A DNA stretch of 25,156 bases from Methanosaeta sp. PtaB.Bin039 (GTDB taxonomy: Archaea; Halobacteriota; Methanosarcinia; Methanotrichales; Methanotrichaceae), in contig MVQI01000024.1 in NCBI GenBank assembly GCA_002067795.1, forward strand, positions 1 to 25,156. Reading direction: 5' to 3'. The stretch's first letter is position 1, and every line of letters begins with the position of its first letter. The position numbers and the translations under genes were made by a program. Under the pieces are notes generated by a model. The model saw only the letters and a program-made list of their open reading frames with translations, searched no databases and was not told the origin of the DNA. This document shows positions 2,342 through 21,669 of the stretch, piece by piece.

Positions 2342-2432
2342 TTCAATACTATTAACATCTAAATCGTAATTGATCATGAATCAGTGTGATGTGACGTATT
2401 GACAACCATCTGAGACAATTGGTGAGCTATAT

Positions 2433-3572: not shown

Positions 3573-3581
3573 TGATTGATC

Positions 3582-4412
3582 ATGCCAGGAATCGTAAACT
3601 GGGACGAGCTTTGGAAGGCCACACATTTCAGGGGCTTTCACCACCATGATCCAGACCTGATCTCCTACTGGGACAGAAAGGCAGAGCTGTTCAATAGAAG
3701 GGTCATGAGGCACAGGGAGAGGGCTGAAATCCAGGTGGCAAGTCTTGGGCTGCGTTCCTACGAGACCGTCCTTGATGTGGGTGCTGGAACCGGAAGGCTG
3801 GCGATCCCCATGTCCAAAGTGGCCAGTAGCGTTACAGCTCTCGACCAATCAGGAGGCATGCTGGCCTGCCTTAAGGAAAATATGCGCGCTGATGGGATAG
3901 AAAATATCCGGTGCATCCAGAAGAGCTGGCAGGATTTGGCGGTAGACGAGATAGAGCAGCATGACGTCGTCATATCCTCAAACTCCCTGGGTGTCTATGA
4001 ATTGAGAGAGGCGCTGGCCAAGATGGATTCGCTGGCCAAGAGCAGGGCTTACATATTCATCTTCACCGATCATAAGAGGGACGACGGTTTTTCGGATTTC
4101 TTAAGGAGAGATGTGGCGGTTAAGAATGCGCCCGGACCTGCGGATTATCTGGTGATCTACAATCTGCTCGCCGAGATGGGCATATACGCCGACATAGAGA
4201 TGGTTGACTGGCTGTACAAAGAGCGTTACTCCAGCCTCGACGAGGCAGCGTCCGAATGGATGCAGATGCATGACATCGCAGCCGATAAGGAGCCTGATCT
4301 GCGGGAATTCCTCTCTTTAAGGCTGGTGGGGGACGAGTCCGGAGTGTGCATGGTCCGCCACTACAAATCGGCCACGATCTCCTGGCGGAAAGGCAAGCTG
4401 GTTCGTGACTAG
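3582..4412 (+). CDS. Class I SAM-dependent methyltransferase, paralog B, embedded in the ABC importer operon
   Basis: It carries VLDVGAGTGRLAIP (motif I) and the acidic loop DEIEQHDVVIS. It is paralogous to the ORF at 1133..1972. The track ORF starts at a TTG at 3576 (MIM...). The ATG at 3582 lies 10 nt after the binding-protein stop and is the more likely start. Confidence 0.8.
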   Translation: MPGIVNWDELWKATHFRGFHHHDPDLISYWDRKAELFNRRVMRHRERAEIQVASLGLRSYETVLDVGAGTGRLAIPMSKVASSVTALDQSGGMLACLKENMRADGIENIRCIQKSWQDLAVDEIEQHDVVISSNSLGVYELREALAKMDSLAKSRAYIFIFTDHKRDDGFSDFLRRDVAVKNAPGPADYLVIYNLLAEMGIYADIEMVDWLYKERYSSLDEAASEWMQMHDIAADKEPDLREFLSLRLVGDESGVCMVRHYKSATISWRKGKLVRD

Positions 4413-4422
4413 GTGGGCGTGA

Positions 4423-5202
4423 ATGGTCTCCATAACCATTTTGGCCGGATCTGTCCTTTTGCTGGGTCTTTTGGCAGCATCGATAAGGGTGGTGAGGCAG
4501 TATGAACGGGCGGTCGTATTTCGTTTGGGAAAGCTGAAAGCCGAGAGAGGTCCTGGCCTCTTCCCACTCGTTCCGCTGGCGGATAATATGGTGCGGGTCG
4601 ACATGAGGGTGAGAGAGCTCGACGTCCCCAAGCAGACCGTGATCTCCAGAGACAATGTCACTCTTGAGGTGGACGCGGTCATATACTACAAGGTGACGAG
4701 CGCCTCGAAAGCCATTGTAGAGGTAGAGGACTTTGAGGCGGCCACGCTTCTGCTGGCCCAGACCACACTTCGTGATATCCTTGGACAAAACGAGCTGGAT
4801 ACTATACTATCAGACCGAGACGACCTCAACCAGAGGATCAAGGAGATATTGGATTTCACAACGGAGCCCTGGGGAATGCATGTGGTGATGGTGACAATGA
4901 GAGACGTCTCACTGCCCGAGAATATGCTGCGTGCCATCGCCCGCCAGGCGGAAGCAGAGCGCGAGAAAAGGGCACGCATAATACTGGCAGAAGGAGAGCT
5001 TCAGGCATCCAGGATGATGAACGAGGCTGCTGATATGTACGAGAACAAGCCCAGTGCTTTGAAGCTGCGTGAGTTTCAGACCTTAAATGAGATCGCCAAG
5101 GAGAAGAACCTCATCGTGGTATCGACTGGAGAGAGAGACGGCCATTGGGCATCAGACCTCCCATGTCTCATGGGTCTGGCCAGGGCGGCTGCTGATAAAT
5201 GA
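4423..5202 (+). CDS. SPFH/band-7 (stomatin/prohibitin-like) membrane protein
   Basis: An N-terminal transmembrane anchor (ITILAGSVLLLGLLAASIRVV) is followed by a typical SPFH core: YERAVVFRLGKL...VPKQTVISRDNVTLEVDAVIYYKV...ATLLLAQTTLRDILG. A C-terminal coiled-coil Ala/Glu-rich stretch (RAIARQAEAEREKRARIILAEGE) follows. The gene lies 10 nt after the upstream gene. Its stop overlaps the permease start (ATGATG). Confidence 0.85.
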   Translation: MVSITILAGSVLLLGLLAASIRVVRQYERAVVFRLGKLKAERGPGLFPLVPLADNMVRVDMRVRELDVPKQTVISRDNVTLEVDAVIYYKVTSASKAIVEVEDFEAATLLLAQTTLRDILGQNELDTILSDRDDLNQRIKEILDFTTEPWGMHVVMVTMRDVSLPENMLRAIARQAEAEREKRARIILAEGELQASRMMNEAADMYENKPSALKLREFQTLNEIAKEKNLIVVSTGERDGHWASDLPCLMGLARAAADK

Positions 5203-6329
5203 TGAGCGGAAAGGCGCTATTCTTCCGGGCCAAGACACGTGCAGAAATGTCCCAATCCAGGAGAGCTGGCAAGAGAAGCGCTATGCAGACGGCTCACGAT
5301 AGATTCAAGCTCGTCAGGATCTTCTTCGTGCTGGGCATCGCCGCCCTGCTGGTCTTTTTAACAGGCTTAATCATAACGCTTGGACCACTGGAGATTTCCG
5401 TGGCCGATGCCTATTCTGCTCTTCTGGCCCGCTTTTTGCCAGATCACTTCCAGTCGGAGGCGCTTACATCACGAGTCGTCTGGAATATCCGGTTTCCCCG
5501 CATACTGGGCGGGATGATGGCTGGATTTGGACTTGGGATATGCGGATGCGTCATGCAGGCAGTCCTCAAAAATCCGCTGGCCAGCCCCTTTACGCTGGGA
5601 ATCACCGCCGGCGCCCAGTTTGGCATATCAATGGCAGCCGTCATTGGATTTTCGGTTCTTGGCGGGCCTTATTTCATAATCGGCAATGCCTTCCTCTGCG
5701 CCCTGCTCTGCTCATTCTTCATCATAGGCCTGGCTGCCATCAAGGGCGCAACCTCTGAGAACCTGGTCTTAGCAGGCATAGCTGTCAACTACTTCTTCTC
5801 AGCCATCAGCCAGCTTCTCAAGTATTTCGCCAGCGATGAGCAGCTTCGACTCATGACCAACTGGGGAATGGGCGACCTGGCCGCCTTCTCCTGGGCGAAC
5901 TCCCAGCTGCTCCTTGCGGTATTCGTCATATGCGTTCCGCTGCTCATGTCCAAATGCTGGGACCTGAACATCATGACCGCCGGCGACGATACCGCCAAGA
6001 GCATCGGGGTAAATGCAGAGAATACCCGACTGTTCATCATGGCAACAAGCAGCCTGCTTGTGGCAGTTATCGTCTGCTTCATGGGAATTATCGCCTTCGT
6101 TGGCCTTGTGGCTCCTCATATGGCACGCATGGTGATCGGCGGAGATCACAGGTTTCTGATACCGGCATCCGGAGTGCTGGGCGCACTTGTCCTCATGTCG
6201 GCTGATGCCGTGGGAATGAATCTGATGGCACCTACCATCATCCCCACAGGGATCATGACATCCATTGTGGGCGTCCCATTCTTCATGTACCTCATGATGA
6301 AGGGAAAGAGAAAGGAGTTCTGGACATGA
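5199..6329 (+). CDS. ABC transporter permease, FecCD/BtuC family (iron-siderophore/cobalamin type)
   Basis: The protein is polytopic and about 370 aa with about 10 hydrophobic helices. It has the typical FecCD N-terminal region and a Gly-rich helix (GGMMAGFGLGICGCVMQ). Its ATGA overlaps with both the upstream and downstream genes. The true start could instead be ATG 5202 or 5283. Confidence 0.85.
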   Translation: MMSGKALFFRAKTRAEMSQSRRAGKRSAMQTAHDRFKLVRIFFVLGIAALLVFLTGLIITLGPLEISVADAYSALLARFLPDHFQSEALTSRVVWNIRFPRILGGMMAGFGLGICGCVMQAVLKNPLASPFTLGITAGAQFGISMAAVIGFSVLGGPYFIIGNAFLCALLCSFFIIGLAAIKGATSENLVLAGIAVNYFFSAISQLLKYFASDEQLRLMTNWGMGDLAAFSWANSQLLLAVFVICVPLLMSKCWDLNIMTAGDDTAKSIGVNAENTRLFIMATSSLLVAVIVCFMGIIAFVGLVAPHMARMVIGGDHRFLIPASGVLGALVLMSADAVGMNLMAPTIIPTGIMTSIVGVPFFMYLMMKGKRKEFWT

Positions 6330-7114
6330 TGATCAAGCTGCAGGCCAAAGAGATAGTCTTCGGCTACGACAGCAATCCCGTTCTGGACAGCGTGAGCTTC
6401 GAGATAGCCCCCTCAAAGCTTGTGACAATCGTCGGGCCCAATGGTTCTGGCAAATCGACCCTGATCAAGTGCATAAACAAAATAGTGTCTCCGCAGGGAG
6501 GAAGCATCCTGATCGACCGAAGAGAGGTAGCGAAGATGACCAGGATGGAGGTAGCCAGATATCTCTCCTATGTCCCGCAAAGCTCGGTGCGCATCTTTCC
6601 CACCAATGTCTTCGACACGATCCTGATGGGCAGAAGGCCCCATATCGGTTGGCTGGGCAGCGAGCGGGATGAAGAGAAGGTCTGGGATGTCTTGCAGCTA
6701 TTGAATATCGAGAGGCTTGCCATGAACAACTTCAGCGAGCTTTCAGGCGGCCAGCAGCAGAAGGTGCTCATTGCCAGAGCGCTTGTTCAGGAAGCGGAGG
6801 TGATGCTTCTTGACGAGCCCACCAGCAACCTGGATATCTGGCACCAGCTGGACGTCATGAACATAATTCGGGACGTCGTCAAGAAGAAGGAGATCACTGC
6901 AATTATGGCCTTGCACGACCTCAACCTGGCGTCATACTACTCGGATCGCATCATAATGATGAAGAGGGGAAAGATCGTGGCAGTCGGCGATCCGCACTCA
7001 GTGATCACAGAGGAGAACATAGCTTCCGTATATCGGGTGCAAGCGGCAGTGCGAAAGCTATCCGATAGGCCGATGATCATGCCACTTCGGCAGATACGTG
7101 GATCCAAGGCCTAA
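6326..7114 (+). CDS. ABC transporter ATP-binding protein (FepC/BtuD-like)
   Basis: It has Walker A GPNGSGKST, Q-loop VPQ, signature LSGGQQQKV, Walker B MLLDEPTSNLD and H-loop ALHD. The ATGA overlaps the permease stop. Confidence 0.9.
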   Translation: MMIKLQAKEIVFGYDSNPVLDSVSFEIAPSKLVTIVGPNGSGKSTLIKCINKIVSPQGGSILIDRREVAKMTRMEVARYLSYVPQSSVRIFPTNVFDTILMGRRPHIGWLGSERDEEKVWDVLQLLNIERLAMNNFSELSGGQQQKVLIARALVQEAEVMLLDEPTSNLDIWHQLDVMNIIRDVVKKKEITAIMALHDLNLASYYSDRIIMMKRGKIVAVGDPHSVITEENIASVYRVQAAVRKLSDRPMIMPLRQIRGSKA

Positions 7115-7151
7115 AGATCAATCGCAAGCTACTAGCCCGCGGCCGTCCAGC

Positions 7152-7158
7152 AAAAAAA
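7152..7158 (-). terminator. Oligo-T tract (TTTTTTT on the minus strand) downstream of the FmdE-like gene. A T5 tract on the plus strand at 7196..7200 lies downstream of the ABC operon. Both are in the convergent intergenic region.
   Basis: Archaeal intrinsic termination occurs at oligo-T runs. Both runs lie in the 90-nt gap between convergent genes. Confidence 0.35.
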
Positions 7159-7205
7159 GTTGCCAGGAAGCACCAATCTGGCACTGTCCCACTGACCCAA
7201 TTTTT

Positions 7206-8321
7206 CTACATCACGCCTGCTACCTTGAGCGGATGTACGCCTGCGCTCTGGAGCAAAGCCAGCCTCTCTGAGTCCACTTCGAACTCCTTTATGACCGAAA
7301 CAACGAGCTGTGGCTGGTTCCAGTACTCCATGAGCCGCACATCCTCGACCAGCTTGGCAGCCCACGACGGCCCCTTGAAATCGGCTGATCCGTCCAGCTC
7401 CCTGGCCCTTGTCCAGTTGAACCCAAGGACCAACGCATCACCCTGCTTGGCAGTCTGGTTCCAGCGAATGTAGATGCCTGCCACATCGCTCTGGTTGTAC
7501 CTGGCTCTCAGAGCGCTCTTCTCCGCGTCGGAGAGGGCCATAACGAACATGCTGCTCTTGCCTGGTGTTGCATCCCATCGCATCTGCAATAAGTCGTCCT
7601 TGCACCACTGGGGACAGGCGATCACTCTATAGCTCTGTGCAGAGATATCCTCGATGGGCAGCTTGCCTTCCACGAACTTGGCGAGCATATAGCCGCTTGT
7701 CACTCCTGGGCAGAGATGATCGTGAAACGCAGTGGCCTGCAGGAAGTCAAACGAGGACCCAGGCTGCGCCCAGACATTGGACATGCCCACAAGGGTGAAC
7801 TCGTTTCCACCAAAGGCTCCCTGGAAGGTGGCGTTGCCCTCATCGGTGTGGTTCAGCATGTAGTCCAGGTCCACGTTAGCCCTCGTGATCCTGGTGAATG
7901 CCTGGTCGGCAGGAAGAGAGGCGAGCTTTTGCGCAGACATGCCCACAGCCCGGTTGTCTGCCTGAAGGAAGATCGCCTCCCCCGTCTCCTTATCGAAGAA
8001 GTAGAACCACAGCGGCTTCCAGTATGGCCGCAGCACCTGAAGCAGGTTGCCGTCGCCGACGCTGCACCCGCTGGCCTCTGTCAGGCCTTTTAAGGCAGCC
8101 TGGGTGGTCTGGCCCTCCACGATGGCATGACCGGCATTTGTGAGTGCCAGTATGTCTTTGTCACCGCTCTGAAATCCCAGTTGAGCCATGGCCTCCTTTG
8201 CAGCCTTTGATCCAATTTCCTCCATAGCAGAGCCCTGCGCATGGACTGCGCATGGCATCGTGGCCAGCAGCAGCGCCAAAGCCACCAACCCAATCGCTTT
8301 AAACATCTTGATACCTCTCAT
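7206..8321 (-). CDS. Secreted FmdE/FwdE-domain protein (formylmethanofuran dehydrogenase subunit E-like; putative Zn/metal-binding)
   Basis: It has a signal peptide with an AXA site (MRGIKMFKAIGLVALALLLATMPCAVHA|QG). The motif AFHDHLCPGVTSGYMLAKF matches the FmdE-family H-x-H-x-CPG zinc-binding signature. A second Cys pair is present (ACPQWC). The track starts at a TTG at 8330. ATGs at 8321 and 8306 both give plausible signal peptides. Confidence 0.6.
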   Translation of the reverse strand: MRGIKMFKAIGLVALALLLATMPCAVHAQGSAMEEIGSKAAKEAMAQLGFQSGDKDILALTNAGHAIVEGQTTQAALKGLTEASGCSVGDGNLLQVLRPYWKPLWFYFFDKETGEAIFLQADNRAVGMSAQKLASLPADQAFTRITRANVDLDYMLNHTDEGNATFQGAFGGNEFTLVGMSNVWAQPGSSFDFLQATAFHDHLCPGVTSGYMLAKFVEGKLPIEDISAQSYRVIACPQWCKDDLLQMRWDATPGKSSMFVMALSDAEKSALRARYNQSDVAGIYIRWNQTAKQGDALVLGFNWTRARELDGSADFKGPSWAAKLVEDVRLMEYWNQPQLVVSVIKEFEVDSERLALLQSAGVHPLKVAGVM

Positions 8322-8663
8322 ACAAGCCAAAATCTCTTCGTCTATGACAGATGGCTTAACCGACCTCGTGATATCGGTTCAGTGCCAATATCCGGGCCTT
8401 GGCCAATACGATAATTGAAGCTGCGCCCAACATTTATGAATGTTTCTATATTTAGTAGCACAAAGAATTAATATACGAGAATTGTCTGTGACTGGAGCAG
8501 ATGAAACAGCTGCCAAGATCACATCTGAAATAAGAAATAGCATAGCTGCAATTCGATTCAGATATGTGTCTTCGTTTTCGCCGGGCTGCAAAATCGCCTG
8601 GCGAAAAAAAAGAGACAGAAGATCCCTGCTGTTGACTGGGGAAATGGGAGATGCAAGAGATCG

Positions 8664-9926
8664 ATGAGACTTGACCCCCCGATAGAGAGCATGCTTGTGG
8701 CATCCAACAGCTACGCCAATAAGGTGAGGCGCTTCAGCTCCAATGCCAGATTGTATCTGGCCTTCCATCTCCTGACCACCGTAAACGCAGGGATCTACGG
8801 GGTTATATTCAACCTCTATATCCTGAGCCTTGGTTTTCGTGAGGACTTCTTAGGTCTGATATTATCCATCTCATCCTTATCGGTCGGACTTTTCGCGATG
8901 CCATCGGCCTTCGTATGCGATCGTCTTGGAAGAAAGAGGACGCTGCTGCTCTCATCGGTTCTCCTTGCAGTATCGCTCCTGTTTCTCTACAACACAACGT
9001 CTCAGGTGCTGCTAGTGGCCTTCAGCATAGCGTTTGGGATGGCCTCAAGCTTGAGCCTGATAACAGGATCGATATTTCTGCTGGAGAATTCCTCAGCTGA
9101 GGAGAGAATGTACCTCTTCTCTATGTCCTCTCTGATCTACACCATCTCTGCATTATCCGGAAATATGATCGGAGGCTTTTTGCCGGGCATTCTTTCGGAT
9201 ATGTTCACACTGGATGCCGACAGTATCGTTGCATACAGAATTACCCTCTATGTTTCATTGACAGCGATAATAATCTCGATGCTGCCGCTGGCATATATGA
9301 GAGAGGAGCGCCGCATGGAAATGGCGATCTCAAGCGGCCAGCTTCTGGCCTATAAATCGGTGTTTGGGTCCAAGAACGCCAGAAGGATGGTCCTATTCTT
9401 TTGCCTTTTCGGCATAGGATGGGGCATGTCGCTTCCCTACTTCAACGTGTATCTCGATTCTTTCTTGGGTGCGAGTGCAAGCCAAATCGGCATGATCTTT
9501 TCTGCGTCTCAGGTGTTCATGGTGGTCGGATACTTCCTGGTGCCCATCTTCGCAGAGAGGGTCGGAAAGATAAGGCTGGCCTCCTCTGTTCAGATACTGT
9601 CCATACCGTTCCTGCTTATGTTCACCTTTGCCTCCAACCTGCTTGTGGCAGCAACTGGATTTGTGATGCGCTACATGCTGATGAACATGGCAAATCCGGT
9701 ATTGAACAGCTTCAAGCTGGAGATCGTCCGTCCAAACGAGAGATCGATGATCAACAGCATCACCTGGATGGCCTGCCATACCTTTGTGGGAGTTGGGACC
9801 TATGCGGGAGGAATGATGATGGCTAATGGATGGAACAGCATGCCGTTTCTGGTGACAGGCGTATTTTATGCGGTCTCCGCCGCATATTATTATATATGCT
9901 TCAATAAGCTTGAAGAGACGGCATGA
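8664..9926 (+). CDS. Major facilitator superfamily (MFS) transporter
   Basis: It is about 420 aa with about 12 predicted hydrophobic helices. An MFS-like loop motif DRLGRKRTLL (G-R-[KR] type) follows TM2. A second half-repeat is present. An AT-rich promoter region lies upstream (8340..8663). Confidence 0.8.
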   Translation: MRLDPPIESMLVASNSYANKVRRFSSNARLYLAFHLLTTVNAGIYGVIFNLYILSLGFREDFLGLILSISSLSVGLFAMPSAFVCDRLGRKRTLLLSSVLLAVSLLFLYNTTSQVLLVAFSIAFGMASSLSLITGSIFLLENSSAEERMYLFSMSSLIYTISALSGNMIGGFLPGILSDMFTLDADSIVAYRITLYVSLTAIIISMLPLAYMREERRMEMAISSGQLLAYKSVFGSKNARRMVLFFCLFGIGWGMSLPYFNVYLDSFLGASASQIGMIFSASQVFMVVGYFLVPIFAERVGKIRLASSVQILSIPFLLMFTFASNLLVAATGFVMRYMLMNMANPVLNSFKLEIVRPNERSMINSITWMACHTFVGVGTYAGGMMMANGWNSMPFLVTGVFYAVSAAYYYICFNKLEETA

Positions 9927-10247
9927 TAGCATGCACCCGAGTCAATGGAAATGCGATCAACAAGGCTGGGACCGAAAAACAAATGCATCCTGCCAGTGAC
10001 AAACCTATCACTTTGAACCACCCGCTTCTGTGTCCCCGGCTTTTCCGTCTCTCCCTTCCTGCTCCTTATCATCTGGTCTGCCGGCATCCTCCGCGTGGCC
10101 GTACCTCTCTGGAAGCTCCTCAGGAAGATCAGCGCCGCACACAGCTCTTCACAGCTGTATGACTAATCGCCACCAGAATTAAACCGTATCGATTCGTCCG
10201 GCCTGCTACCACAAGGGCTATTATCCCAAGGGCCCTCCTCCCCACCC

Positions 10248-11204
10248 ATGCCAAACCTCAACGTGGTGGTCCTGGGTCCAGCCGGCTACTCCAAGGAGCT
10301 GGGAAAGACGGGAACCACTAGCGATATGACCTTTTACAATCTGAAAAGGGGCGAGGATACCGTCACCTTCATAGAGCCCACCCGCTACCCGGAACGTCTG
10401 GCACCCCTCTTTTACGCAGCAACTCTTGCCAGGATGGCGGTTTTGGTGGTGGAGAAGATCGATCCGGCATTCGGAGAGTGCGTCCTGATGCTCGACTGCC
10501 TGGGCATATCCTCCGGCTATCTGATCCTCCGCAACTTCATCCAGAAGGAGCAGGTCTTGCCGCTCATCAAGGGAACGGTCGCAGAGGGCTATGAGCTGCT
10601 GGCAGACGATCCCATTGTCCTGCGTGAGCGCCTGCTGGAAGAGGCGACAAAGGAGAATCCGGCCTTAGACGCTCCCGTTGGCAGCATGCCTGTGGACCAC
10701 TTCTTCAGCGTCCGCGGCGTCGGCACGGTTGTCCTTGGTGCTGTCACCCGGGGCAGCTTAAAGAAGCACGACTCGTTGCGAATCCTGCCGGGCGAAAAGA
10801 CCGCCCAGATCCGCTCGATTCAGAAGCACGACCAGGATTTCGATGCGGCTGGTCAGGGTGAGAGGACCGGACTTGCGCTGAAGGGAATAGAGGTGGACGA
10901 CCTTGACCGCGGCGTTGTGCTCACCACTGATCCGTCCATCAAGGTCAGCAGCTCTGTGCAGGCAAAAGCGCGGCTGGTAAAATACTGGCCATCGCCGCTG
11001 AAGGAAGGCATGGTGCTGCACCTGGGCCACTGGATGCAGTTCGTGCCTGCCAGGGTCGAGTCGGCCAGCGGAGACGACTGGCACAGGCCACTTCTTCAGC
11101 TATCCCTCGACAAGCCACTCGTGCATCCGCCAGGCGCCTCTGGAGTGCTCACCTATCCGGAAGGAGGCAAGCTTCGAGTCGTGGGGACGGTAGAGCTGCC
11201 CTGA
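10248..11204 (+). CDS. EF-Tu/EF-1alpha/SelB-like protein with degenerate GTPase motifs (pseudo-GTPase paralog of translation elongation factors)
   Basis: The N-terminus NLNVVVLGPAGYSKELGK aligns with the EF1A G1 region NLVVIGHVDHGKST but lacks an intact P-loop. FIEPTRYP replaces the G3 FIDAPGH. Domain II beta-barrel signatures are well conserved (FSVRGVGTVVLGAVTRGSLKKHDSLRILPG...IRSIQKHDQDFDAAGQGERTGLALKGIEVDDLDRG). Confidence 0.6.
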   Translation: MPNLNVVVLGPAGYSKELGKTGTTSDMTFYNLKRGEDTVTFIEPTRYPERLAPLFYAATLARMAVLVVEKIDPAFGECVLMLDCLGISSGYLILRNFIQKEQVLPLIKGTVAEGYELLADDPIVLRERLLEEATKENPALDAPVGSMPVDHFFSVRGVGTVVLGAVTRGSLKKHDSLRILPGEKTAQIRSIQKHDQDFDAAGQGERTGLALKGIEVDDLDRGVVLTTDPSIKVSSSVQAKARLVKYWPSPLKEGMVLHLGHWMQFVPARVESASGDDWHRPLLQLSLDKPLVHPPGASGVLTYPEGGKLRVVGTVELP

Positions 11205-11256: not shown

Positions 11257-11290
11257 ACACGCTTTTTCGGAAAAACCTGAAAAAGCGTGT
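11257..11290. terminator. Perfect 11-bp stem hairpin (acacgcttttt / aaaaagcgtgt, 12-nt loop) between convergent genes. It is a likely bidirectional terminator.
   Basis: I read it directly: ACACGCTTTTT cggaaaaacctg AAAAAGCGTGT. T-runs lie inside both arms. It is located in the 236-nt convergent gap 11205..11440. Confidence 0.4.
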
Positions 11291-11440: not shown

Positions 11441-12223
11441 TCACTGGGTCAGCCCTGCCCTCCACTTCAGCATCCTCTCCTCAACCACGTAGCGGAAGGC
11501 CCTGTCGATGAACAGGCCCAGCAATCCCAGGACTATCATGTAGAGGAGCACGTACTCCATCTTGTGCAGGTAGTAGTACGACCAGATGCGGTAGCCCAGC
11601 CCGCTGGTGCTGACACCGAACATCTCTGCAGCTACAAGGCACATCCAGGATATGCCCATGGCGATCCTTACGCCTCCGGCTATTGAGGGCAGGGCGTACG
11701 GGAAAGCCACGTAGCGGATAAGGTCTCGATTGCTTGTAGCACCCAGCACCTTGGCCGACTCCACGAATACCCGAGGCAGGCTTCTAAATCCCACATAGGT
11801 GTTGATCAGTATGGGAAAGACCGCTCCGACAAATACGATGAACCCGGCGGACTCGTGAGTCAGGCCGAACCAGACGATGGCGAACGGTATCCAGGCCAGC
11901 GGAGGTATGGGCCGTATCACCTCCACCATGGGGTCGATCAGCCGGTCCATGTGCCTAGACCATCCCATTCCCATGCCCAGTGGAAGGGCGAGGAGCACTC
12001 CGGCTCCCATGCCCAACCCGAAGTGAAGCAGGCTTATTGGCAGATCCTGAAATATCAGGGTCTTCCAGCTTGCCTCGAGGGCGACGAGGACCTGCAGAAA
12101 GCTGGGCAGGATCAGGGTGTCGCCCACGAGCATTGCCACGGCCTGCCATACAAGGACCAGGCTGGCAAGGGAGAGGGCGGAAATCCACTCCCTGCGAAGC
12201 GTCTTCGCCCAGTCGCCGTTCAT
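11441..12223 (-). CDS. ABC transporter permease, NitT/TauT family (SsuC/TauC-like; sulfonate/nitrate/taurine type)
   Basis: This is a binding-protein-dependent inner-membrane component fold with 6 TM helices. The EAA-like loop region is ESAKVLGATSNRDLIRYVAFPYALPSIAGGVRIAMGISWMCLVAAEM. The track ORF starts at a TTG at 12283 and would overlap the upstream gene by 20 nt. The ATG at 12223 (MNGDWAKTL) lies 40 nt after the binding-protein stop and is preferred. Confidence 0.85.
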   Translation of the reverse strand: MNGDWAKTLRREWISALSLASLVLVWQAVAMLVGDTLILPSFLQVLVALEASWKTLIFQDLPISLLHFGLGMGAGVLLALPLGMGMGWSRHMDRLIDPMVEVIRPIPPLAWIPFAIVWFGLTHESAGFIVFVGAVFPILINTYVGFRSLPRVFVESAKVLGATSNRDLIRYVAFPYALPSIAGGVRIAMGISWMCLVAAEMFGVSTSGLGYRIWSYYYLHKMEYVLLYMIVLGLLGLFIDRAFRYVVEERMLKWRAGLTQ

Positions 12224-12263
12224 CTTCGACTCCTGCCTGAGCCTGGTATCGCGATCCAGCTCA

Positions 12264-13241
12264 TCAGGCCTTCGCCCTGTCAAAGAAGCTGGTGTCGAAG
12301 AGCTCCTCCTCAGACAGCTCCTTTTGGGTGTAGTTCATCTGATAGTCCACCTTGGCATACTCCAGGGTAGAGGGGATCTGGATGTGGGGATCGCTCACCC
12401 ACTCGCCGTCCCAGTTCTTGACGGAGTGCATGACCGTCTTGAGATCCTGCTTGGTGCGGTTGGCGTAGATCTCCGCAGCCTCCTCCGGATGGGAGTTAAC
12501 ATACTCGGTTGCCTTCAGGTGGGTCTTGACGATCTGAGCCACCAGCTCCGGATTGTCCCGGATCAGCCGGCCGCTGACAACAAGGCTGCAGCAGGCGTGG
12601 TTGGGCCACATCTGGCCGGAGGGCAGCGCCTCCTGTCCTTTGCCCTCCAGGATGACTATCGACGGCGACGGTGCAGGCAGGAAGACCCCATCGACCTTGC
12701 CGGCGGAGATGGCAGTAACTGCATCTCCCGGCCCCATGGGCAGGATCCTTACCTTGTCGATGTCAACTCCGTTTTCCTGCAGCCACTTCTTCATCACAGT
12801 GTCCTGGATTGACCCAGGCGGAAATGTGCCGATGCTCATCCCTTCAAGTGAGGACGGTCCCAGATAGGCTTTATCTGGCCTCAGGACAAGGTCGGAGCCG
12901 TTGGTATTGACGGCGGCCACGATCTTGGCATCCAGGCCGCTGGCAATTGCCGAGATCGGCGGGGCTGTTCCTACGTAGGCCACATCAAGGCTTCCGGCCA
13001 GCATGGCCTGCATCTCAGGCGGACCGGAGGGAAATTCGAACTCCTTTATCTCGGTAATTCCGAAGGGCTTCAAGTCCTCCAGCCACCATCCTTTCTCCAT
13101 GGCCACCATCTCGGCGATCTGGTGGGTGCTGGGCTGGTAACCTATGTTCAATGTGGTCACCTCGGCCTTCTTCTCCGAGATGCAACCCAGCGTAGCAACC
13201 ACTGCCAGGGCAACAACAGCAATAATTATCTGGCTTCTCAA
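12264..13241 (-). CDS. ABC transporter substrate-binding lipoprotein, NitT/TauT (SsuA/TauA/NMT1-like) family
   Basis: It has a lipoprotein-type signal peptide with a lipobox-like LGC (M/L-RSQIIIAVVALAVVATLGC|ISEK). Its periplasmic binding-protein class II architecture is similar to aliphatic sulfonate/taurine binders (LNIGYQPSTHQ...DVAYVGTAPPISA). The only available start is a TTG at 13241, because a TGA stop lies 2 codons upstream in frame. Confidence 0.8.
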   Translation of the reverse strand: MRSQIIIAVVALAVVATLGCISEKKAEVTTLNIGYQPSTHQIAEMVAMEKGWWLEDLKPFGITEIKEFEFPSGPPEMQAMLAGSLDVAYVGTAPPISAIASGLDAKIVAAVNTNGSDLVLRPDKAYLGPSSLEGMSIGTFPPGSIQDTVMKKWLQENGVDIDKVRILPMGPGDAVTAISAGKVDGVFLPAPSPSIVILEGKGQEALPSGQMWPNHACCSLVVSGRLIRDNPELVAQIVKTHLKATEYVNSHPEEAAEIYANRTKQDLKTVMHSVKNWDGEWVSDPHIQIPSTLEYAKVDYQMNYTQKELSEEELFDTSFFDRAKA

Positions 13242-13675
13242 ATGGCATCACCCCGATGATACTTACGGATCGGATGAATCCATGACTCTGCTCGGTCGGT
13301 TTGTATAAAGTTCTTTCCCGCCAGGCAGCCTATTGTTCCTTTTCGGGCAAATCATCTCTTTGATTTGGACAAAAATATCTCGTATAGAGGTGCAAGCGGC
13401 ATAGATGGTCGCGAAAGGCGATCTGCAGCAAAGCAGATATCCTAAGAGAGCGAACTTGGGGCGAGGCCAGTGGATGCGATTGAGTCATTTTAGGATATGG
13501 CCTTCCGAGGAGACCAGGAGAGAACAGGATGCCTGAAATCCCAAAGGAAAAGAGACGTCTTATCCAAGGACCATGCAGCTCCTGCCAGAAAACTGTTCGA
13601 CGAGACGCAATTTTCGGCAAGATTAGATCCATTTCGCAGGCCAGGGATTCGCATCTACAAGGTTGCAGGTGAATA

Positions 13676-14932
13676 ATGAGATCGGCTTTCGAGATCTCGG
13701 AGAAGATAAGAAGAGGCCACGGAGTGGTGATGACAGTCGGCGAGCTCCAGCATCTGGCCGAGAGCGGAGACGGAGAGGGGATCGAGGAGGTTGACGTCAT
13801 AACCACAGCTACCCGTGCGGTCATGAGCGGAACTTATGCCGTTCTATCCTTTCCGGCAGCCTGTCCGGGCGCGTTCATCAGGGCCAGGTCTGCCAGGCTC
13901 AACGGCGTCTTGGCCAATGTGGGCCCATGCCCCAACGAGCGGCTGGGTGTGCTCGATCTGGTGGTGTTCGGCACCGGACACAGGGATGCCAGATATGGCG
14001 GCGGGCATCTATTCCGGGACCTGGTTGAGGGAAAAGGGGTGACAGTGGAGATCGAGACGTCAGATGGCCGAATCCTGAAGGACGAGACCTCCCTTGCACG
14101 GATGCAGTCCGCGCGGCTATTCGGAAGCCGCCACTGCTTCAAGAACTACTCCGCCTTCGTCAATCCGGGATGCCAGGATGTAAGGACCATATTTCATGCG
14201 GTCGGCTTTCCGCCGAACCTGGCTGCAGCCACCTTCTCCGGATGCGGCCGCTACAGCCCGCTGCAGTGCGATCCTCTTTTAGAGGGCATCGGCGCAGGCA
14301 GCCGAATACTGATGAACGGCGCAACAGGCATGGTAATTGGGCCCGGCACACGCAGCAGCAAACAGCGCCCGAACCTTAGCGGATTTGCCGATATGGCTGG
14401 AATGGACCCGCAGCTGATGGGCGGCTTCATCACGTCGGCAGGCCCGGAATGCATCTGCTCCTGGGCTGTGGCAATCCCTGTTGTCAGCCCATCCATTTTG
14501 CAGGCTGCCCTGACCCCTGACCGGGATATCCACATGCCTGTGATGGACGTCGTAGAGCGCAGGCCACTGGGAGAGGCAGACTACGGCCAGGTCTGGGACG
14601 ATGTGGACCTGGCGGTGCGATTCTCACCTCAGGCGTGCCGAGGCTGCCAGGCCTGCCAGGCAGAGGAGAGCTGTCCCACCCAGGCGATTGGCCGGGATAA
14701 AGGGATAAGGATTGACCGCAGCCTGTGCTTCAACTGTGGGCTTTGTTCTACGATCTGTCCGGACGTCTTCGCCGCCAGGCTGGGATCGATCGGGCTTGCA
14801 GGAAGACAGGTGCCGGTGGCCATGCGCCAGTCTGACCGGGCCAGGGCCCAGAAGATGGCTGCTGACCTGAAACGGCGAATACTCGACGGCTCTTTCCAGA
14901 TAACTCCGATGATCGATGCTATCCGGTTCTAG
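13676..14932 (+). CDS. COG1900/DUF39-domain protein with C-terminal 2x[4Fe-4S] ferredoxin domain. It is a homolog class of MA3299/MJ1681, a putative sulfoacetaldehyde-to-CoM sulfur-inserting enzyme. The homocysteine-synthesis protein MA1821 is a related paralog.
   Basis: The N-terminus ISEKIRRGHGVVMTVGEL matches the conserved start of DUF39 proteins. The C-terminus carries two ferredoxin-type cysteine motifs, CRGCQACQAEESCP and CFNCGLCSTICP. Its genomic context is convergent with comDE, and its stop overlaps the comE stop region by 14 nt. GGTGA lies 6 nt upstream of ATG 13676. Confidence 0.7.
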   Translation: MRSAFEISEKIRRGHGVVMTVGELQHLAESGDGEGIEEVDVITTATRAVMSGTYAVLSFPAACPGAFIRARSARLNGVLANVGPCPNERLGVLDLVVFGTGHRDARYGGGHLFRDLVEGKGVTVEIETSDGRILKDETSLARMQSARLFGSRHCFKNYSAFVNPGCQDVRTIFHAVGFPPNLAAATFSGCGRYSPLQCDPLLEGIGAGSRILMNGATGMVIGPGTRSSKQRPNLSGFADMAGMDPQLMGGFITSAGPECICSWAVAIPVVSPSILQAALTPDRDIHMPVMDVVERRPLGEADYGQVWDDVDLAVRFSPQACRGCQACQAEESCPTQAIGRDKGIRIDRSLCFNCGLCSTICPDVFAARLGSIGLAGRQVPVAMRQSDRARAQKMAADLKRRILDGSFQITPMIDAIRF

Positions 14933-15449
14933 TGGGGAGACAAGAGGTGAACCGGTCCCGGATCTGAAGAGGGGAGAGTGGGATGATCGGTACTTCGGCG
15001 TTTCCAGGCTCTACCCGGACAACCAGGACGCCGGATCGGTCAAGGCTGCGTCGCAGTTCCTCCGAAGTGGCGGCCTGGCCGACCTCCTCCACGCCGGCTG
15101 CCCTTGCCATCTGGACGAGATCGGTCTTCTGGGCTGTGCAGGTCAGCTGGCAGCCTGTGGAGCCGTAAGAGCAGTTATCAAGGATTATCAGCAGGTAGCC
15201 AGAAGGCGCATGGTGAGCGATCGTGGCCAGGGTGCCCAGGTTCATGAGGACTGAGCCGTCGCCGTCGATGACGAAGACCCGGCGTCCGCTGGCCAGCGCA
15301 AGCCCGAGGCCGATTGAAGAGGCGAGCCCCATCGAGCCCAGCATGTAGAAGTTCTCAGGCCGGTCGTAAACAGCGTAAAGCTCCCTGCTGGGATAGCCGA
15401 TGTTGCAGACGAGCAGGGCTTTCTGCCTCACAGCCTGCCCCGCCACCAC
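14919..15449 (-). CDS. comE: Sulfopyruvate decarboxylase beta subunit (thiamine-diphosphate-binding)
   Basis: It has the TPP-binding motif GDGS...N (VIDGDGSVLMNLGTLATI). LVCNIGYPSRELYAVYDRPENFYMLGSMGLASSIGLGLA closely matches the ComE N-terminus of methanogens. The start is a GTG at 15449. Confidence 0.85.
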   Translation of the reverse strand: MVAGQAVRQKALLVCNIGYPSRELYAVYDRPENFYMLGSMGLASSIGLGLALASGRRVFVIDGDGSVLMNLGTLATIAHHAPSGYLLIILDNCSYGSTGCQLTCTAQKTDLVQMARAAGVEEVGQAATSEELRRSLDRSGVLVVRVEPGNAEVPIIPLSPLQIRDRFTSCLPTRTG

Positions 15450-17991: not shown

Positions 17992-18651
17992 TTACCAAAC
18001 CTTCAGGTCTATCCCCTCAATCCTCACCATCCGACCCTCGGAGTGCACAACCACTCCGGAATGCACCTTCTGCATCATGCAGTGCTCAGGCAGGAAACGG
18101 ACGGTCTGGCCCACAGACGGGATACTGCCACGGACCACCAGGCCTTCAAATGCTGCCACCATGCAGACGCCAAGGTCGTTGTATTCGGCCTGCTGTCCCA
18201 GCAGGTGCAGCGGGCCTACCATATGAACGGTCAGAATGCCGTGCTCCCATCCAAGCACCCGGGCGAAATGGGTCACCGGACAACCAAGTGGGCGATAGCG
18301 GATAAGGTCGCCTGGGCAAAATGTGAGACTTCGATCGAATGGAAATAGGTCCTCACGACAGGAGGGCTCGCCAGGCAGCGGCCCCAATGAGAAGTCAGCC
18401 AAAAGGCCGTCTATAACTCCCCGAACAGTCTCCTCCGACGCGGCCCTATTGCCGGAGAGGACTTCTCGGATGCCTTCTGCATGTCCTGCAAAGCGCTCCT
18501 GCCCAAGATAGGGACACTGCCCCGTATCGCCGCCACCGCTTGCCAGCAGCTGAGCGAAATTTTGGCAGCTCCTCTGGCCGCACTCTCCGCAGTTGAATCC
18601 GGGAAGCAGCCGCTCCACCTGTTCTGATAGGTTCAAGGCCTTGGTCCTCAC
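17992..18651 (-). CDS. Fe-S protein with an N-terminal RnfB/AcsC-type putative [4Fe-4S] domain (C-x2-C-x4-C...C) and an uncharacterized Cys-containing C-terminal domain
   Basis: The N-terminus [30 protein letters not shown] matches the PF04060-type cluster motif of the RnfB N-terminus and the corrinoid Fe-S protein large subunit. The C-terminal region has further Cys/His ([21 protein letters not shown]). The GTG start overlaps the upstream gene's stop (GTGA). Confidence 0.6.
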
Positions 18652-19346
18652 TCACCGGAGTATTCCATAAATCCGTCCATATGCCTGAGAACACCCCGGT
18701 GATATCGCTTGGAGACTCGCAGCTCGCCGCTGCAAAGAGTGCAGACGGCCAGCGGCGGATTGTGGCGGAGCATCATATTCTCTGCGGCAGGCGGAAGCGC
18801 CCGGATTATCTCTGCCAGATCGCTCCCGCCCTTCCCGGTAAGTCCATTGGCCTCAACTATCCTGCAATGCGGATTGGCCTCGAGCACCCTCTCTCTGAAA
18901 ACCTCGCGCTCGGCCTGCGATACCAGATCGCATTTGGTCGTGACCACCACGTCTGCGGTGGTCAGAAGCGGTCCAACCTTGAGCGGGGTGTTGGGTCCGG
19001 TCGTAACATCGATCACGCAGACGGCCAGGCAGTGGTCGGGATAGGGGGCGCACCTGAGACACAGCCCGGCAGTCTCGTTGAGCAGGACATCTGCATCCTG
19101 CTTCTTTGCCCATTCGAGCATCTCGTCCACGTTATATATGGAGAAGTGATCGGGACACATGTCCCTGGAGAGCGCCACATGTACCGGAATTCCCAGGCGG
19201 CCGATGCGCTTGTCGTCCTCAGTCCACAGGCAGTCCACCTTTACAACTGCTGGCCGGCTGCCGGATCCCTCAAGACACCTGGCCGCATGCATCAGGACCG
19301 ATGTCTTGCCTGATCCGGGGGTGCCAGCTATCACCACAAGCTTCAC
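18648..19346 (-). CDS. G3E-family P-loop GTPase (HypB/UreG/CobW/MeaB-like metallochaperone class) with a C-terminal CxxC motif
   Basis: It has G1 GTPGSGKTS, an E-x-x-G switch II variant LLNETAGL (G3E hallmark) and an NKxD-like TKCDL. The C-terminus carries CTLCSG. The GTG start overlaps the ABC ATPase stop (GTGA). Confidence 0.65.
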
Positions 19347-20104
19347 AGGGCCGCCTCCGCGGCGCTGACGGTCTCACCCCTGCGAATGGCCTCCCGCAGG
19401 TTGATCAGCCACCGGTCCACACGGCTCAAGCTGTTACAGACCTTTTGCTCCTCCTCGCTTGTCTGGATTACCCGGACCATATTTCCCTTCTTCATGACCA
19501 CACGCCGAGAGGTCATAAGGGCCAGGACCGGATCATGGGTGACCACCACCACGATCTTGCCCTCGCCTGCCAGGAGCTTGAGAGCCTCTTGCTTCTTGAT
19601 CCCGGCATTTTCTATCTCGTCGATGAGGACAATTGGAGAGTCGCTGATAACCGCTATATCGGCTGTCATCAGGGCCCGCGACTGGCCTCCGCTCAGAGCG
19701 GTCAGGTGGTGCTCCGGGTGTATGGGCTCGCCGGTCAGGGTGTTGGCGAGATCTATCACCTTTGCGATCAGGTTCTCCTCCCTACCACGGCTCTTTGCAT
19801 GCATTGCCAGGAAGTCCGAGACCGTCATATCTGCCAGGAAATGCATATTCTGGGAGAGCTGAGCCACAGGCTTTCTGCGCGGATCTGCCCTGACCTCTGC
19901 ATCTGGAGGCTGGCCATCGATGAGCACCTGGCGGCGGGATTCCGTATCTCTTTGGGCAAACTGCTCCAGGTCGGATATCAGCGTGCTCTTCCCTGACCCG
20001 GTTGGCCCAACGATTCCGACGATCTCGCCGCTATCGATATGTAGTGTCTCTATGTGATCCGCACATCCATCTTTGTCCACGCCACCCAGAATTGTAAGCC
20101 TCAA
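19343..20104 (-). CDS. Orphan ABC-type ATPase (single nucleotide-binding domain, no adjacent permease) with a ~45-aa C-terminal extension
   Basis: It has Walker [10 protein letters not shown], signature LSGGQSRAL, Walker B VLIDEIE and H-loop VVTHD. The TTG start lies 6 nt after the cysteate-synthase stop, in the same reading frame as that gene, separated by one TGA. Confidence 0.8.
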
Positions 20105-20110
20105 TTTTCG

Positions 20111-21409
20111 TCAACTCCTGATGAACTCCAGTACCTGCTTCTCCAGGTCGTCGGCCGGATGCCCCGGCCTGACCTTCATCTGGCAGGGAAGGATCGACGG
20201 CCCTAGTTCTTCCCAGGACCGCTTGACACCGCCTCCTGTGATGTTTAGGAGGACCATCTCTTCCTTTCTTACCGCCCCATCCTCCATTGCTTTCAGAAGC
20301 GCTGCAACTGCCACTGCTGGCGCCGGGAGGATGTCTATGCCTTCGCTGGACTCAAACAGCTGCCTGGCAGCTTCAGCCTCATCGTTGGCGACCCCCAAAA
20401 CAGCTCCGCTCGTCTCACGCAGGGCCTGCTCAACCCCCCCAGGAATGGCGTAGGGTGGATTTCTGTTGAACAGGACATCGTCATACATCTCATCCGGGCA
20501 GCCAAGCCCTTTCCATATCTCCGATAATCCTGACGGGGACTCGCCGCCAGGACCCGTCCATAGCCTATGAATAGGCGCACATGGCAGGTTTTGGGCCAGA
20601 TGCAGCCTGGGGATATTTGATCCGAAGCGGCCGTCTCCCGCCAGCCGCAATGCCGCCTCCCACGCAGCGATACCGCCGGTGCCGCTGCCCACTGCCTGGA
20701 AGTAATGATCTGGGATCACACCTGCGGTTGCGGCTGCCTCCAGCATCACTGTGCCCATCCCGTCACGCCGGGCGATGTTCCTGGCGCCGCCTTCCGGAAG
20801 GAATCCGGGGCGGCTGGCCAGACGGTCGGCCGCCTGTATGGCGTCAAGATAGTCGCCTTCTACTCCTGCCAGGCAGATCCGCCCGGGCTCCACCGTGGTC
20901 CACAGCCTGTGCAGAGAGGACGTCGGTACAAAAAGGACAACGGGTCGACCGGTCAGCGAGGCGGTCTGGGCGAAGGCCCTGGCTGTATTTCCTGCCGATG
21001 CCACAACCAGTACAGGGGCATTGTGCCCTCCCGGCACTCCGGCGACGGGCCTGGCAGTCTCGGATAGGCGCTGCATCGTGGGAGCTGCTTCCAGCTCCTT
21101 GAAGCTGCCGGTGACCATCGATGCTCCCATCTCTGGCCAAAAACCGGAGAAGCTTATAAAGAGCCTCTGAAGGCCTATCTCCCTGGCCAGTCCCTGGCTC
21201 TGATAGCACACCGATCCGGCGCCAGTTCGCATATCAGGGCTCTTTACCGGAAGCCAGGCAAGATGACGCCATACACCCGGCAGGTCCGCTATCTCCAGCC
21301 GCTTCTGGGAATAGACCGCACGCGGCAGCCCAGGATCCAGCCGACAGCTAGTGGCCAGATCATGGAGGACGGAGCCGCAGCCCTGGCAGCATACCTTGTA
21401 ATCTCCCAT
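20111..21409 (-). CDS. Cysteate synthase-like PLP enzyme (threonine-synthase/TrpB fold-type II family). Given the neighbouring comD/comE and DUF39 genes, it is most likely the Methanosarcinales-type cysteate synthase of CoM biosynthesis.
   Basis: It has the PLP-lysine motif VTGSFKELEA (family pattern T-G-S-F-K-D/E), the glycine-rich PLP phosphate loop VGSGTGGIAAW and an N-terminal Cys cluster CCQGCG. I cannot distinguish it from a true threonine synthase by sequence alone. Confidence 0.65.
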   Translation of the reverse strand: MGDYKVCCQGCGSVLHDLATSCRLDPGLPRAVYSQKRLEIADLPGVWRHLAWLPVKSPDMRTGAGSVCYQSQGLAREIGLQRLFISFSGFWPEMGASMVTGSFKELEAAPTMQRLSETARPVAGVPGGHNAPVLVVASAGNTARAFAQTASLTGRPVVLFVPTSSLHRLWTTVEPGRICLAGVEGDYLDAIQAADRLASRPGFLPEGGARNIARRDGMGTVMLEAAATAGVIPDHYFQAVGSGTGGIAAWEAALRLAGDGRFGSNIPRLHLAQNLPCAPIHRLWTGPGGESPSGLSEIWKGLGCPDEMYDDVLFNRNPPYAIPGGVEQALRETSGAVLGVANDEAEAARQLFESSEGIDILPAPAVAVAALLKAMEDGAVRKEEMVLLNITGGGVKRSWEELGPSILPCQMKVRPGHPADDLEKQVLEFIRS

Positions 21410-21669
21410 GATACACAGACCTCTCTCGCGGGGGCATATAATGTTTTCTGTTTATATCGATTTTTTATCCTTATTGGGAATATTGACAAATATAAGTTTC
21501 CTTTAATGGATACATTCCGGCCGAAAACATGCCAATTGGACCCGGCGGCAGGGGATGGATGAGTGCCCTTCAGAGCAGTAGCAGCATGCTGGAATGGCCC
21601 TTCTAATTCCCGCGGTTATCAGCATTGGATTCCAAAAGTACAAATATCATAAAATCGTAACCCAATAGT
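21410..21669. promoter_or_regulatory. Divergent AT-rich promoter region between the cysteate-synthase operon and the HTH regulator. TATA-like elements lie about 25-30 nt from each start codon, which suggests leaderless or short-leader transcripts.
   Basis: On the minus strand, CATTATAT lies about 30 nt upstream of ATG 21409. On the plus strand, AAATATCATAAAAT lies about 25 nt upstream of ATG 21670. Confidence 0.4.

Follow-up and report, generated by a model that had tools for sequence, protein, structure and literature searches.

The 25,156-nucleotide contig MVQI01000024.1 of Methanosaeta sp. PtaB.Bin039 (family Methanotrichaceae), analysed at its full length and called the window below, encodes a substrate-binding protein (SBP) and a permease beside genes for the synthesis of coenzyme M (CoM; 2-mercaptoethanesulfonate). 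Judged from their sequences, the two genes specify the receptor and the channel of an ATP-binding cassette (ABC) importer of the NitT/TauT family, set among genes of CoM homeostasis. We consider it moderately probable that they salvage CoM or a close derivative as parts of a split importer whose ATPase is encoded elsewhere, the substrate and the location and type of the ATPase being predicted. Proteins of the window are 99% identical to entries of PtaU1.Bin028.

Closest described systems

Loss of ssuC, according to work attributed to Nayak and Metcalf in 2017, reportedly leads to resistance to 2-bromoethanesulfonate (BES). The genes ssuB, ssuC and ssuA of Methanosarcina acetivorans (MA0063, MA0064 and MA0065) have been named a CoM-specific ABC transporter, and methanogenesis marker protein 16 (MMP16) has been shown to be the main CoM synthase, ComF, of the same organism (PMC12068725). 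In cells without MMP16 and without CoM, expression of ssuA goes up about 3.3-fold and that of ssuC about 2-fold, and the genes for cysteate synthase (cs), comDE and hdrABC rise as well; ssuB is unchanged on CoM starvation, added CoM reverses the response, and CoM auxotrophs are rescued by sub-micromolar CoM (PMC12068725). The ssuABC genes of M. acetivorans are a routine non-essential target for editing, with ssuC as the standard (PMC10750270), and the ssuC gene of M. maripaludis is MMP1197 (PMC9430280). Because of the reports on M. acetivorans ssuABC, an Ssu-type CoM importer of methanogens that is co-regulated with CoM synthesis is already established (PMC12068725, PMC10750270). An earlier note on this DNA had called CoM uptake in methanogens poorly defined at the gene level, a view that is outdated in part, ssuABC of M. 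acetivorans being genetically defined and induced by CoM starvation (PMC12068725).

The M. acetivorans system resembles the present pair, by description alone, as a methanogen importer with a sulfonate-type SBP and a permease tied to CoM homeostasis. Its expression levels suggest the order SBP-permease-ATPase, as in relatives of the pair from anaerobic methanotrophic archaea of group 1 (ANME-1). It differs in having its own ssuB adjacent and in not lying beside the CoM genes (MA3297-99). A metagenome scan with a published ssuC guide sequence gave no match.

The SsuABC importers of bacteria (Escherichia coli and Xanthomonas citri; PDB entries 3E4R, 3KSJ, 3KSX and 2X26) provide the best sequence and fold match to the SBP, in which the sulfonate-holding Gln and backbone dipole are kept, and their permease belongs to the same family as the one studied here. 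However, the match is at about 20% identity, it does not reach the equivalog models, and the present pair has neither the Trp185 of X. citri SsuA nor an adjacent SsuB; a His-x-Cys-Cys (H-x-C-C) motif in the SBP and a Cys in the channel are additions relative to the bacterial system. No SsuD or SsuE monooxygenase genes were found in the window or in related loci, and the host is an anaerobe.

For the permease and the ATPase of the ANME-1 relatives, no NCBIfam family is closer than that of the SAO system, which occurs in Clostridioides difficile and other anaerobes. Its SaoX, a lipoprotein with the SsuA fold, carries a CC motif in the cleft, and its SaoP has selenocysteine or Cys at the channel gate (bioRxiv 10.1101/2022.07.06.499078); the correspondence of these Cys columns to those of the present family is approximate, being judged from hidden Markov model coordinates only. 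Scores against the SAO models lie well below their cut-offs, CoM genes stand here in place of a MerB-like lyase gene, and there are no selenocysteines. None of the nine-gene SAO neighbourhood (MerB-like SaoL, SaoB, SaoE, SaoC, SaoT) was found in the window.

The only solved full transporters of the family are NrtABCD and CmpABCD (8WM7, 9U9Z), which carry nitrate and bicarbonate in cyanobacteria. The alignment of NrtB and CmpB to the permease spans the EAA loop and the W-x-x-x-V-A-A-E helix, whereas these systems differ in the pocket of the SBP, in an Ala in place of the conserved Cys, and in their adjacent ATPases with a fused regulatory domain. New here are an ATPase-less form that is stable throughout a family, the physical joining of transporter and pathway genes in ANME-1, and the signature of H-x-C-C and channel Cys with an associated helix-turn-helix (HTH) regulator.

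The gene pair and its neighbours

The pair and the CoM synthesis genes of the window are as follows.

11441-12283, minus strand: permease gene, NitT/TauT-type ABC importer permease
12264-13241, minus strand: SBP gene, TTG start, 325 aa, SsuA-like
13676-14932, plus strand: MMP16/ComF (methanogenesis marker 16, CoM synthase), TIGR03287 483.5 bits against a cut-off of 364
14919-15449, minus strand: ComE (sulfopyruvate decarboxylase), TIGR03846 225.9 bits
15494-16072, minus strand: ComD (sulfopyruvate decarboxylase), TIGR03845 199.3 bits
20111-21409, minus strand: cysteate synthase (cs), TIGR03844 545 bits

The SBP gene and the start of the MMP16/ComF gene (13676) are 434 bp apart and divergently transcribed, and the cysteate synthase gene lies about 7 kb from the pair. 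The public gene call places the permease start 20 codons later (11441-12223, 260 aa), and a start at 12223 is probably correct. Only 236 bp follow the permease gene before a convergent EF-Tu-like gene (10248-11204, plus strand), and this interval holds an inverted repeat, read directly from the sequence.

~11257-11290: inverted repeat with 12-bp arms, ACACGCTTTTTC ... GAAAAAGCGTGT, between the convergent permease and EF-Tu-like genes

The repeat likely marks the end of the operon, with no ATPase gene after the permease. The earlier note had described an SBP and a permease without a cognate ATPase beside CoM genes, and had pointed to an ATPase at 19343-20104 as the only unassigned one. That description is accurate, because both genes are real, the cognate ATPase is absent, and the other ABC ATPase of the window (6326-7114, PF00005 116.5 bits) is part of a complete Peripla_BP_2/FecCD system, which leaves 19343-20104 as the only unpaired ABC-type ATPase.

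An SsuA-like binding protein

The SBP matches the Pfam families NMT1_2 (E 2.7e-38) and NMT1 (1.7e-16) and the NCBIfam model TIGR01728 SsuA_fam (164.6 bits; cut-off 163.5). It falls short of the SsuA equivalog PRK11553 (66 bits against a cut-off of 299), and SaoX is its second-best NCBIfam match after SsuA_fam (78 bits against a cut-off of 300). Its N-terminus is a hydrophobic stretch that ends in a conserved Gly19-Cys20 (LGC), which fits a lipoprotein-type anchor. The best sequence matches in the PDB are SsuA of X. citri (3E4R, E 2.4e-13) and of E. coli (2X26), and SsuA outranks NrtA/CmpA, ThiY, TauA and THI5. With an AlphaFold (AF2) model of the SBP (pLDDT 89), Foldseek likewise places the X. 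citri and E. coli SsuA structures at the top (E 1e-20, TM 0.74-0.85), and the top 20 matches are all members of the NitT/TauT family. The protein has the NMT1/SsuA-type class II periplasmic binding fold of that family (TC 3.A.1.17).

X. citri SsuA binds the sulfonate through Gln36 and the backbone NH groups of Gly68, Gly86 and Ser141 (PMC3839906). In a HMMER alignment Gln36, Gly68 and Gly86 fall on Gln36, Gly73 and Gly91 of the SBP, and Ser141 falls at the turn Gly143-Ser144-Ile145, one position out of register; Trp185 of X. citri SsuA, which packs on the alkyl chain, is absent. The sulfonate-contact residues of the SBP are invariant in the archaeal clade. Binders of hydroxymethylpyrimidine (HMP) or thiamin (NMT1/THI5/ThiY) and of nitrate or bicarbonate are weaker matches than SsuA by both sequence and fold. 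The proposal of the earlier note that the pair is a sulfonate-type (NitT/TauT, SsuA-like) importer is thus borne out, with SsuA closest in both sequence and fold and the residues that contact the sulfonate kept; the HMP-, nitrate- or bicarbonate-type pocket that it had named as contrary evidence was not found, the SsuA sulfonate residues being present instead.

A cysteine signature in receptor and channel

The SBP family carries a motif, His215-x-Cys217-Cys218 in the present protein, that usually follows W-P-x. It is found in 163 of the 167 full-length SBP homologues from the fetched loci and is kept down to 27% identity, in Methanopyrus, Nezhaarchaeales, ANME-1, Hecatellaceae and Desulfobacterales. 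By analogy with SaoX, and because it stands where the second domain-crossing strand begins, the motif may lie in the binding cleft.

The permease matches BPD_transp_1 (E 1.8e-22), and its best NCBIfam scores, all below the cut-offs, are to SaoP (160 bits; cut-off 295), NtrB (132), TauC (126) and SsuC (114; cut-off of PRK11365, 347). It aligns with the solved NrtB and CmpB chains (E 4e-31) and has the features of a TauC/SsuC/NrtB-type permease, including an EAA coupling loop (VESAKVLG...ALP). A Cys in the motif WMC[LVI]VAAE (here WMCLVAAE) is conserved in 132 of 136 homologues, and NrtB and CmpB have Ala at that position. Together, the H-x-C-C motif of the SBP and the Cys of the permease would handle the non-sulfonate end of the ligand, which for CoM is the thiol.

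Within the ATPase-less group the coupling loop is better conserved than the rest of the permease (82% against 73%), and its pattern, E-S/T-A/G-x-x-L-G, is as in the group that contains an ATPase. Because the pattern is kept and the loop is the best conserved part, the permease is expected still to dock an ordinary ATPase partner.

Conservation of the split layout and the link to CoM genes

Genomes, one per species, were scanned with an alignment of the SBP as query; the best 80 of 434 relatives, all Methanotrichaceae, were retained, open reading frames (ORFs) were called in about 10 kb of sequence around each locus, and their products were compared with the proteins of the window. The SBP-permease pair is present in 70 of the 80 loci, with intact ORFs and 61-78% amino-acid identity, and the other 10 hold a lone SBP paralogue. 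No ABC ATPase gene on the same strand was found within 3 kb downstream in any of the 55 loci whose sequence extends at least 1.5 kb beyond the permease; the sole ABC ATPase within that distance (one locus) is of ZnuC type and on the opposite strand. A cognate ATPase of the TauB/SsuB/NrtD type is encoded with the SBP and permease neither in the window nor in any of these 55 loci. The ATPases that do occur in Methanotrichaceae neighbourhoods, in local sequence only, are of DrrA, LolD, ZnuC, ABCE1 and MCR-A2 type. The ATPase-less layout is the rule in Methanotrichaceae and not an accident of one genome.

The outer flanks of the pair vary between loci. MMP16 lies directly upstream of the pair in 37 of the 56 loci with enough upstream sequence and comDE in four more, so that a CoM gene adjoins the pair in 41 of 56.

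A metagenome scan seeded with more distant members of the SBP family yielded a sister clade of 51-59% identity, whose proteins are identical to entries from metagenome-assembled genomes of Methanophagales (ANME-1) and 'Methanomicrobia archaeon'. Its cluster, clearest in locus L123, begins with a divergent HTH gene and continues MMP16 - cs - fused comDE - SBP - permease - ATPase, all genes after the HTH gene being co-directional with gaps of 0-160 bp. The cognate ATPase of this cluster carries LLMDEPFGSVDAQTR and scores 285 bits with SaoA (cut-off 360), 253 with TauB and 250 with NtrCD; by sequence it is of the canonical NitT/TauT (TauB/SaoA) type.

Solitary SBP paralogues without a permease occur in many Methanotrichaceae (L002 at 8632-11053, L057, L060, L080, L081 and L087-L089). 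The copy in L002 stands beside fragments of a further copy and near genes for ThiS, a Cys_Met_Meta_PP enzyme and a rhodanese. The lone copies of L081 and L089 have no H-x-C-C.

Three NitT/TauT-type ABC transporter genes have been described in place of nifEN in ANME nitrogenase loci (PMC12180501). There, too, the family has been recruited to the side of a pathway for a cofactor or metallocluster in methane-cycling archaea, with no kinship to the present clade implied.

A candidate common regulator

Three further features of the window concern transcription.

21670-22188, plus strand: HTH_3 (XRE-type) regulator, Pfam HTH_3 E 5.8e-10, divergent from the cs operon
13242-13675: divergent promoter region between the SBP and MMP16 genes, with transcription factor B recognition element (BRE) and TATA box CTTTATAC, TATA at ~13304-13309 on the minus strand, ~65 bp upstream of the TTG
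21446-21501: palindrome-like element upstream of cs, between the HTH gene and cs, TTTTATCCTTATTGGGAATATTG..., with TTATCC-N6-GGGAATA

The HTH_3 regulator has a C-terminal domain of about 100 aa that is uncharacterised. In 19 loci, which are of Methanocrinis and M. harundinacea type and among those without an adjoining CoM gene, a homologue of 76-81% identity is the immediate upstream neighbour of the SBP-permease pair and is transcribed divergently from it; homologues of 50-55% identity head the ANME-1-type cluster of CoM and transporter genes. The regulator therefore accompanies CoM genes or the transporter in three arrangements, and its sequence and distribution make it a candidate for a common, CoM-responsive regulator of CoM synthesis and uptake genes.

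The tie to CoM metabolism that the earlier note had drawn from adjacency thus recurs in two gene orders and two archaeal orders, with the HTH regulator in common. It is more than adjacency, because three independent lines converge on it: MMP16 or comDE upstream of the pair, the ANME-1 cluster, and the synteny of the HTH regulator. The link is well supported by gene context.

In the promoter region, the block GGAAA..CTTTATAC and a further block upstream of it are conserved in more than 35 Methanotrichaceae loci. The TTG start of the SBP gene (at 13241) is preceded by GGTGAT, and the context GGTGAT-N-TTG is conserved across the family (L010-L089), so that TTG initiation appears to be a fixed feature of the gene. 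A position weight matrix was built from the conserved block upstream of the Methanotrichaceae SBP promoters. Its top hit in the whole locus is a site upstream of cs in the window and in L008, L009 and L090, which include a second Methanothrix, Methanolobus and Methanococcoides, and the site upstream of cs is second best in L091 (Methanomethylovorans). In the first four loci the site beat all equally AT-rich 200-bp windows, with low absolute scores. A promoter motif common to the SBP and cs genes is suggestive on this basis. No known RNA element (Rfam) was found in the 434-bp leader or anywhere else in the window.

Substrate and energy source of the importer

The explanation we favour is high-affinity uptake of CoM, or of methyl-CoM or CoM disulfide. 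The lipid-anchored SBP would grip the sulfonate as SsuA does, with the side chain of a Gln and with backbone NH groups at the ends of helices, and its His-x-Cys-Cys motif, together with the Cys in a channel-lining helix of the permease, would contact the thiol end of the ligand. Because the ordinary EAA coupling loop is retained, the permease should need a nucleotide-binding subunit; in Methanotrichaceae the gene for this subunit would have been separated from the operon, and it most likely encodes a canonical TauB/SaoA-type protein elsewhere in the genome. Expression would probably be coordinated with CoM synthesis through the conserved HTH regulator.

Several findings weigh against this explanation. 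The SBP clears TIGR01728 by only about 1 bit, and the SsuA, SsuC and TauC equivalog models are far from being reached. About a quarter of the Methanotrichaceae loci have no CoM gene adjoining the pair, and no canonical ATPase was found in the Methanotrichaceae sequence covered (~10 kb round each locus). Distant H-x-C-C members occur in Desulfobacterales, where the sulfonate-contacting Gln is replaced; we know of no use for CoM in Desulfobacterales. Finally, the CC motifs of the related SaoX have been interpreted as ligands of metals or organometallics (bioRxiv 10.1101/2022.07.06.499078).

The importer might instead carry a precursor or sulfur source of the CoM pathway (sulfite, thiosulfate, cysteate, taurine, isethionate or sulfoacetaldehyde) that feeds ComDE/ComF. 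Sulfite is a co-substrate of cysteate synthase. SBPs of the NitT/TauT family take XO3-type anions such as nitrate, bicarbonate and sulfonates, as the PDB neighbours illustrate, the transporter directly follows comDE and cs in ANME-1, and vicinal cysteines could react with sulfite. Members of the SBP family also occur in sulfate reducers, and a lone paralogue lies among genes for ThiS, a pyridoxal phosphate (PLP) enzyme of the O-acetylhomoserine sulfhydrylase type and rhodaneses. However, the precedent in Methanosarcina concerns CoM and BES (PMC12068725), the analysis identified no feature specific to sulfite or to a precursor, and the need to take up a precursor is not obvious in an organism whose CoM is made de novo from phosphoserine. 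We regard precursor import as somewhat unlikely.

The energy source proposed in the earlier note was the unpaired ATPase of the cysteate synthase operon, so that one ATPase would serve both CoM synthesis and CoM uptake. The operon is given here as context and is not judged to be part of the transporter.

17992-21409, minus strand: cysteate synthase operon
19343-20104, minus strand: divergent ABC-type ATPase ("orphan"), PF00005 59.8 bits
18648-19346, minus strand: CobW/HypB-type G3E GTPase
17992-18651, minus strand: Fe-S protein (PF04060)

The orphan is the only unpaired ABC-type ATPase in the window, where no other candidate was seen; its Walker A, Q-loop, LSGGQ signature, Walker B and H-loop motifs are intact, and its operon and the transporter pair are both linked to CoM. 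The distribution also has a complementary pattern, Methanotrichaceae having the ATPase-GTPase-FeS trio after cs and no transporter ATPase, and ANME-1 the reverse. Nevertheless, the cognate ATPase of the ANME-1 cluster is canonical, and the orphan shares 25% identity with it (41.6 bits). A BLAST search from the cognate ATPase (E<=1e-10) missed the orphan and retrieved unrelated ATPases of LolD, DrrA and ZnuC type. With PF00005 and with each of the NCBIfam ATPase models the orphan scores below 60 bits, whereas ordinary transporter ATPases reach 116-340 bits, and its D-loop is atypical (DEIENAGI instead of DEPxxxLD). A tight cs-ATPase-GTPase-FeS-comD-comE operon occurs in Methanococcoides burtonii, Methanolobus and Methanomethylovorans (L008, L090 and L091) with no SBP or permease gene within 10 kb, and in none of the 80 other Methanotrichaceae loci does the cs-ATPase-GTPase-FeS operon lie within 10 kb of the transporter. 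The 6-kb spacing between the orphan ATPase and the pair is thus peculiar to the lineage of the window. The permease coupling loop, moreover, shows no special divergence. Because of the divergence of the orphan, the context of its operon and the ordinary coupling loop, a canonical ATPase elsewhere in the genome is more likely than a shared one, and energisation by the orphan is unlikely. Of the interpretation put forward in the earlier note, the substrate class and the link to CoM therefore stand and the shared ATPase does not.

The ATPase-GTPase-FeS trio (17992-20104) directly follows cs, as it also does in L008, L009, L090 and L091. When the window is compared with Methanococcoides, Methanolobus and Methanomethylovorans, identity is higher for the ATPase (66-73%) and the GTPase (72-81%) than for cs, ComD, ComE and MMP16 (50-57%). 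In a search from the Methanolobus homologue of the orphan, the top 120 matches, all listed at 71% identity or above, came from Methanolobus, Methanohalophilus, Methanomethylovorans, Methanosalsum, Methanococcoides and Methanotrichaceae, and none of the matches listed was from Methanosarcina. A literature search on the cs-ATPase-GTPase-FeS module found nothing. From its sequence and position, the trio is a possible accessory or maturation module of the CoM pathway that has gone unrecognised.

A bolder combination, which we think distinctly improbable, would make the pair a dedicated CoM importer family of Methanotrichaceae and ANME-1 in which His-Cys-Cys and the channel Cys read the thiol, the HTH protein responds to CoM, and the orphan ATPase drives transport, the trio coupling synthesis to uptake. 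Under such an arrangement the His-Cys-Cys site may hold a metal, by analogy with the Zn sites of CoM methyltransferases.

A metal also figures in a further alternative, that the pair is an SAO-type relative importing a soft metal, an organometallic or a metal-thiolate with its cysteines as metal ligands, the CoM neighbourhood then reflecting either metal supply to the MMP16 'metalloprotein' or coincidence. In NCBIfam, the permease scores best with SaoP and the ANME-1 ATPase with SaoA, and SaoX ranks second for the SBP; H-x-C-C and the permease Cys are family hallmarks, and SaoX and SaoP have a cleft CC and a gate Sec or Cys, respectively (bioRxiv 10.1101/2022.07.06.499078). However, the Sao scores are far below cut-off (160 against 295, 78 against 300 and 285 against 360 bits), the other SAO genes such as that for the MerB-like lyase are absent from the window, the SsuA sulfonate residues are retained in the archaeal clade, and what the SAO transporter carries is itself no more than a hypothesis. 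Metal import is very unlikely. That the pair is a decaying, non-working remnant left by loss of the ATPase, as the missing adjacent ATPase of the Methanotrichaceae loci might suggest, is scarcely credible given intact ORFs in 70 of the 80 species-level loci at 61-78% identity, a conserved promoter, TTG start context and full set of functional motifs, and a permease in which no part is better conserved than the coupling loop.

Among single biological sources of methane Methanothrix is probably the largest, and ANME-1 consumes methane on a major scale; to our knowledge neither is genetically tractable. If the route of entry of CoM were defined, and with it that of BES and other CoM analogues, differences in inhibitor sensitivity and possible cross-feeding of the cofactor in consortia would be easier to explain. 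The H-x-C-C motif, the channel Cys and the HTH regulator offer concrete hypotheses on how a thiol-sulfonate cofactor could be recognised and sensed. The family-wide loss of the adjacent ATPase indicates that ABC importers can be stably split, and it warns annotators against automatically taking the nearest 'orphan' ATPase for the missing partner.

Other features of the window

The EF-Tu/SelB-like protein encoded at 10248-11204 (plus strand) matches domain 2 (GTP_EFTU_D2) only, with no match to a G-domain, and the position of its gene, convergent with the permease, is kept in about 25 related loci. At 1133-8330 the genes of the Peripla_BP_2/FecCD/ATPase importer are interleaved with those of class I S-adenosylmethionine-dependent methyltransferases (1133-1984 and 3576-4412). 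An SPFH/Band 7 protein (4423-5202) is also encoded within this locus, and a secreted FmdE-domain protein (7206-8330) follows the importer genes. This mix of genes is unusual for an uptake locus of the iron, siderophore or corrinoid type.

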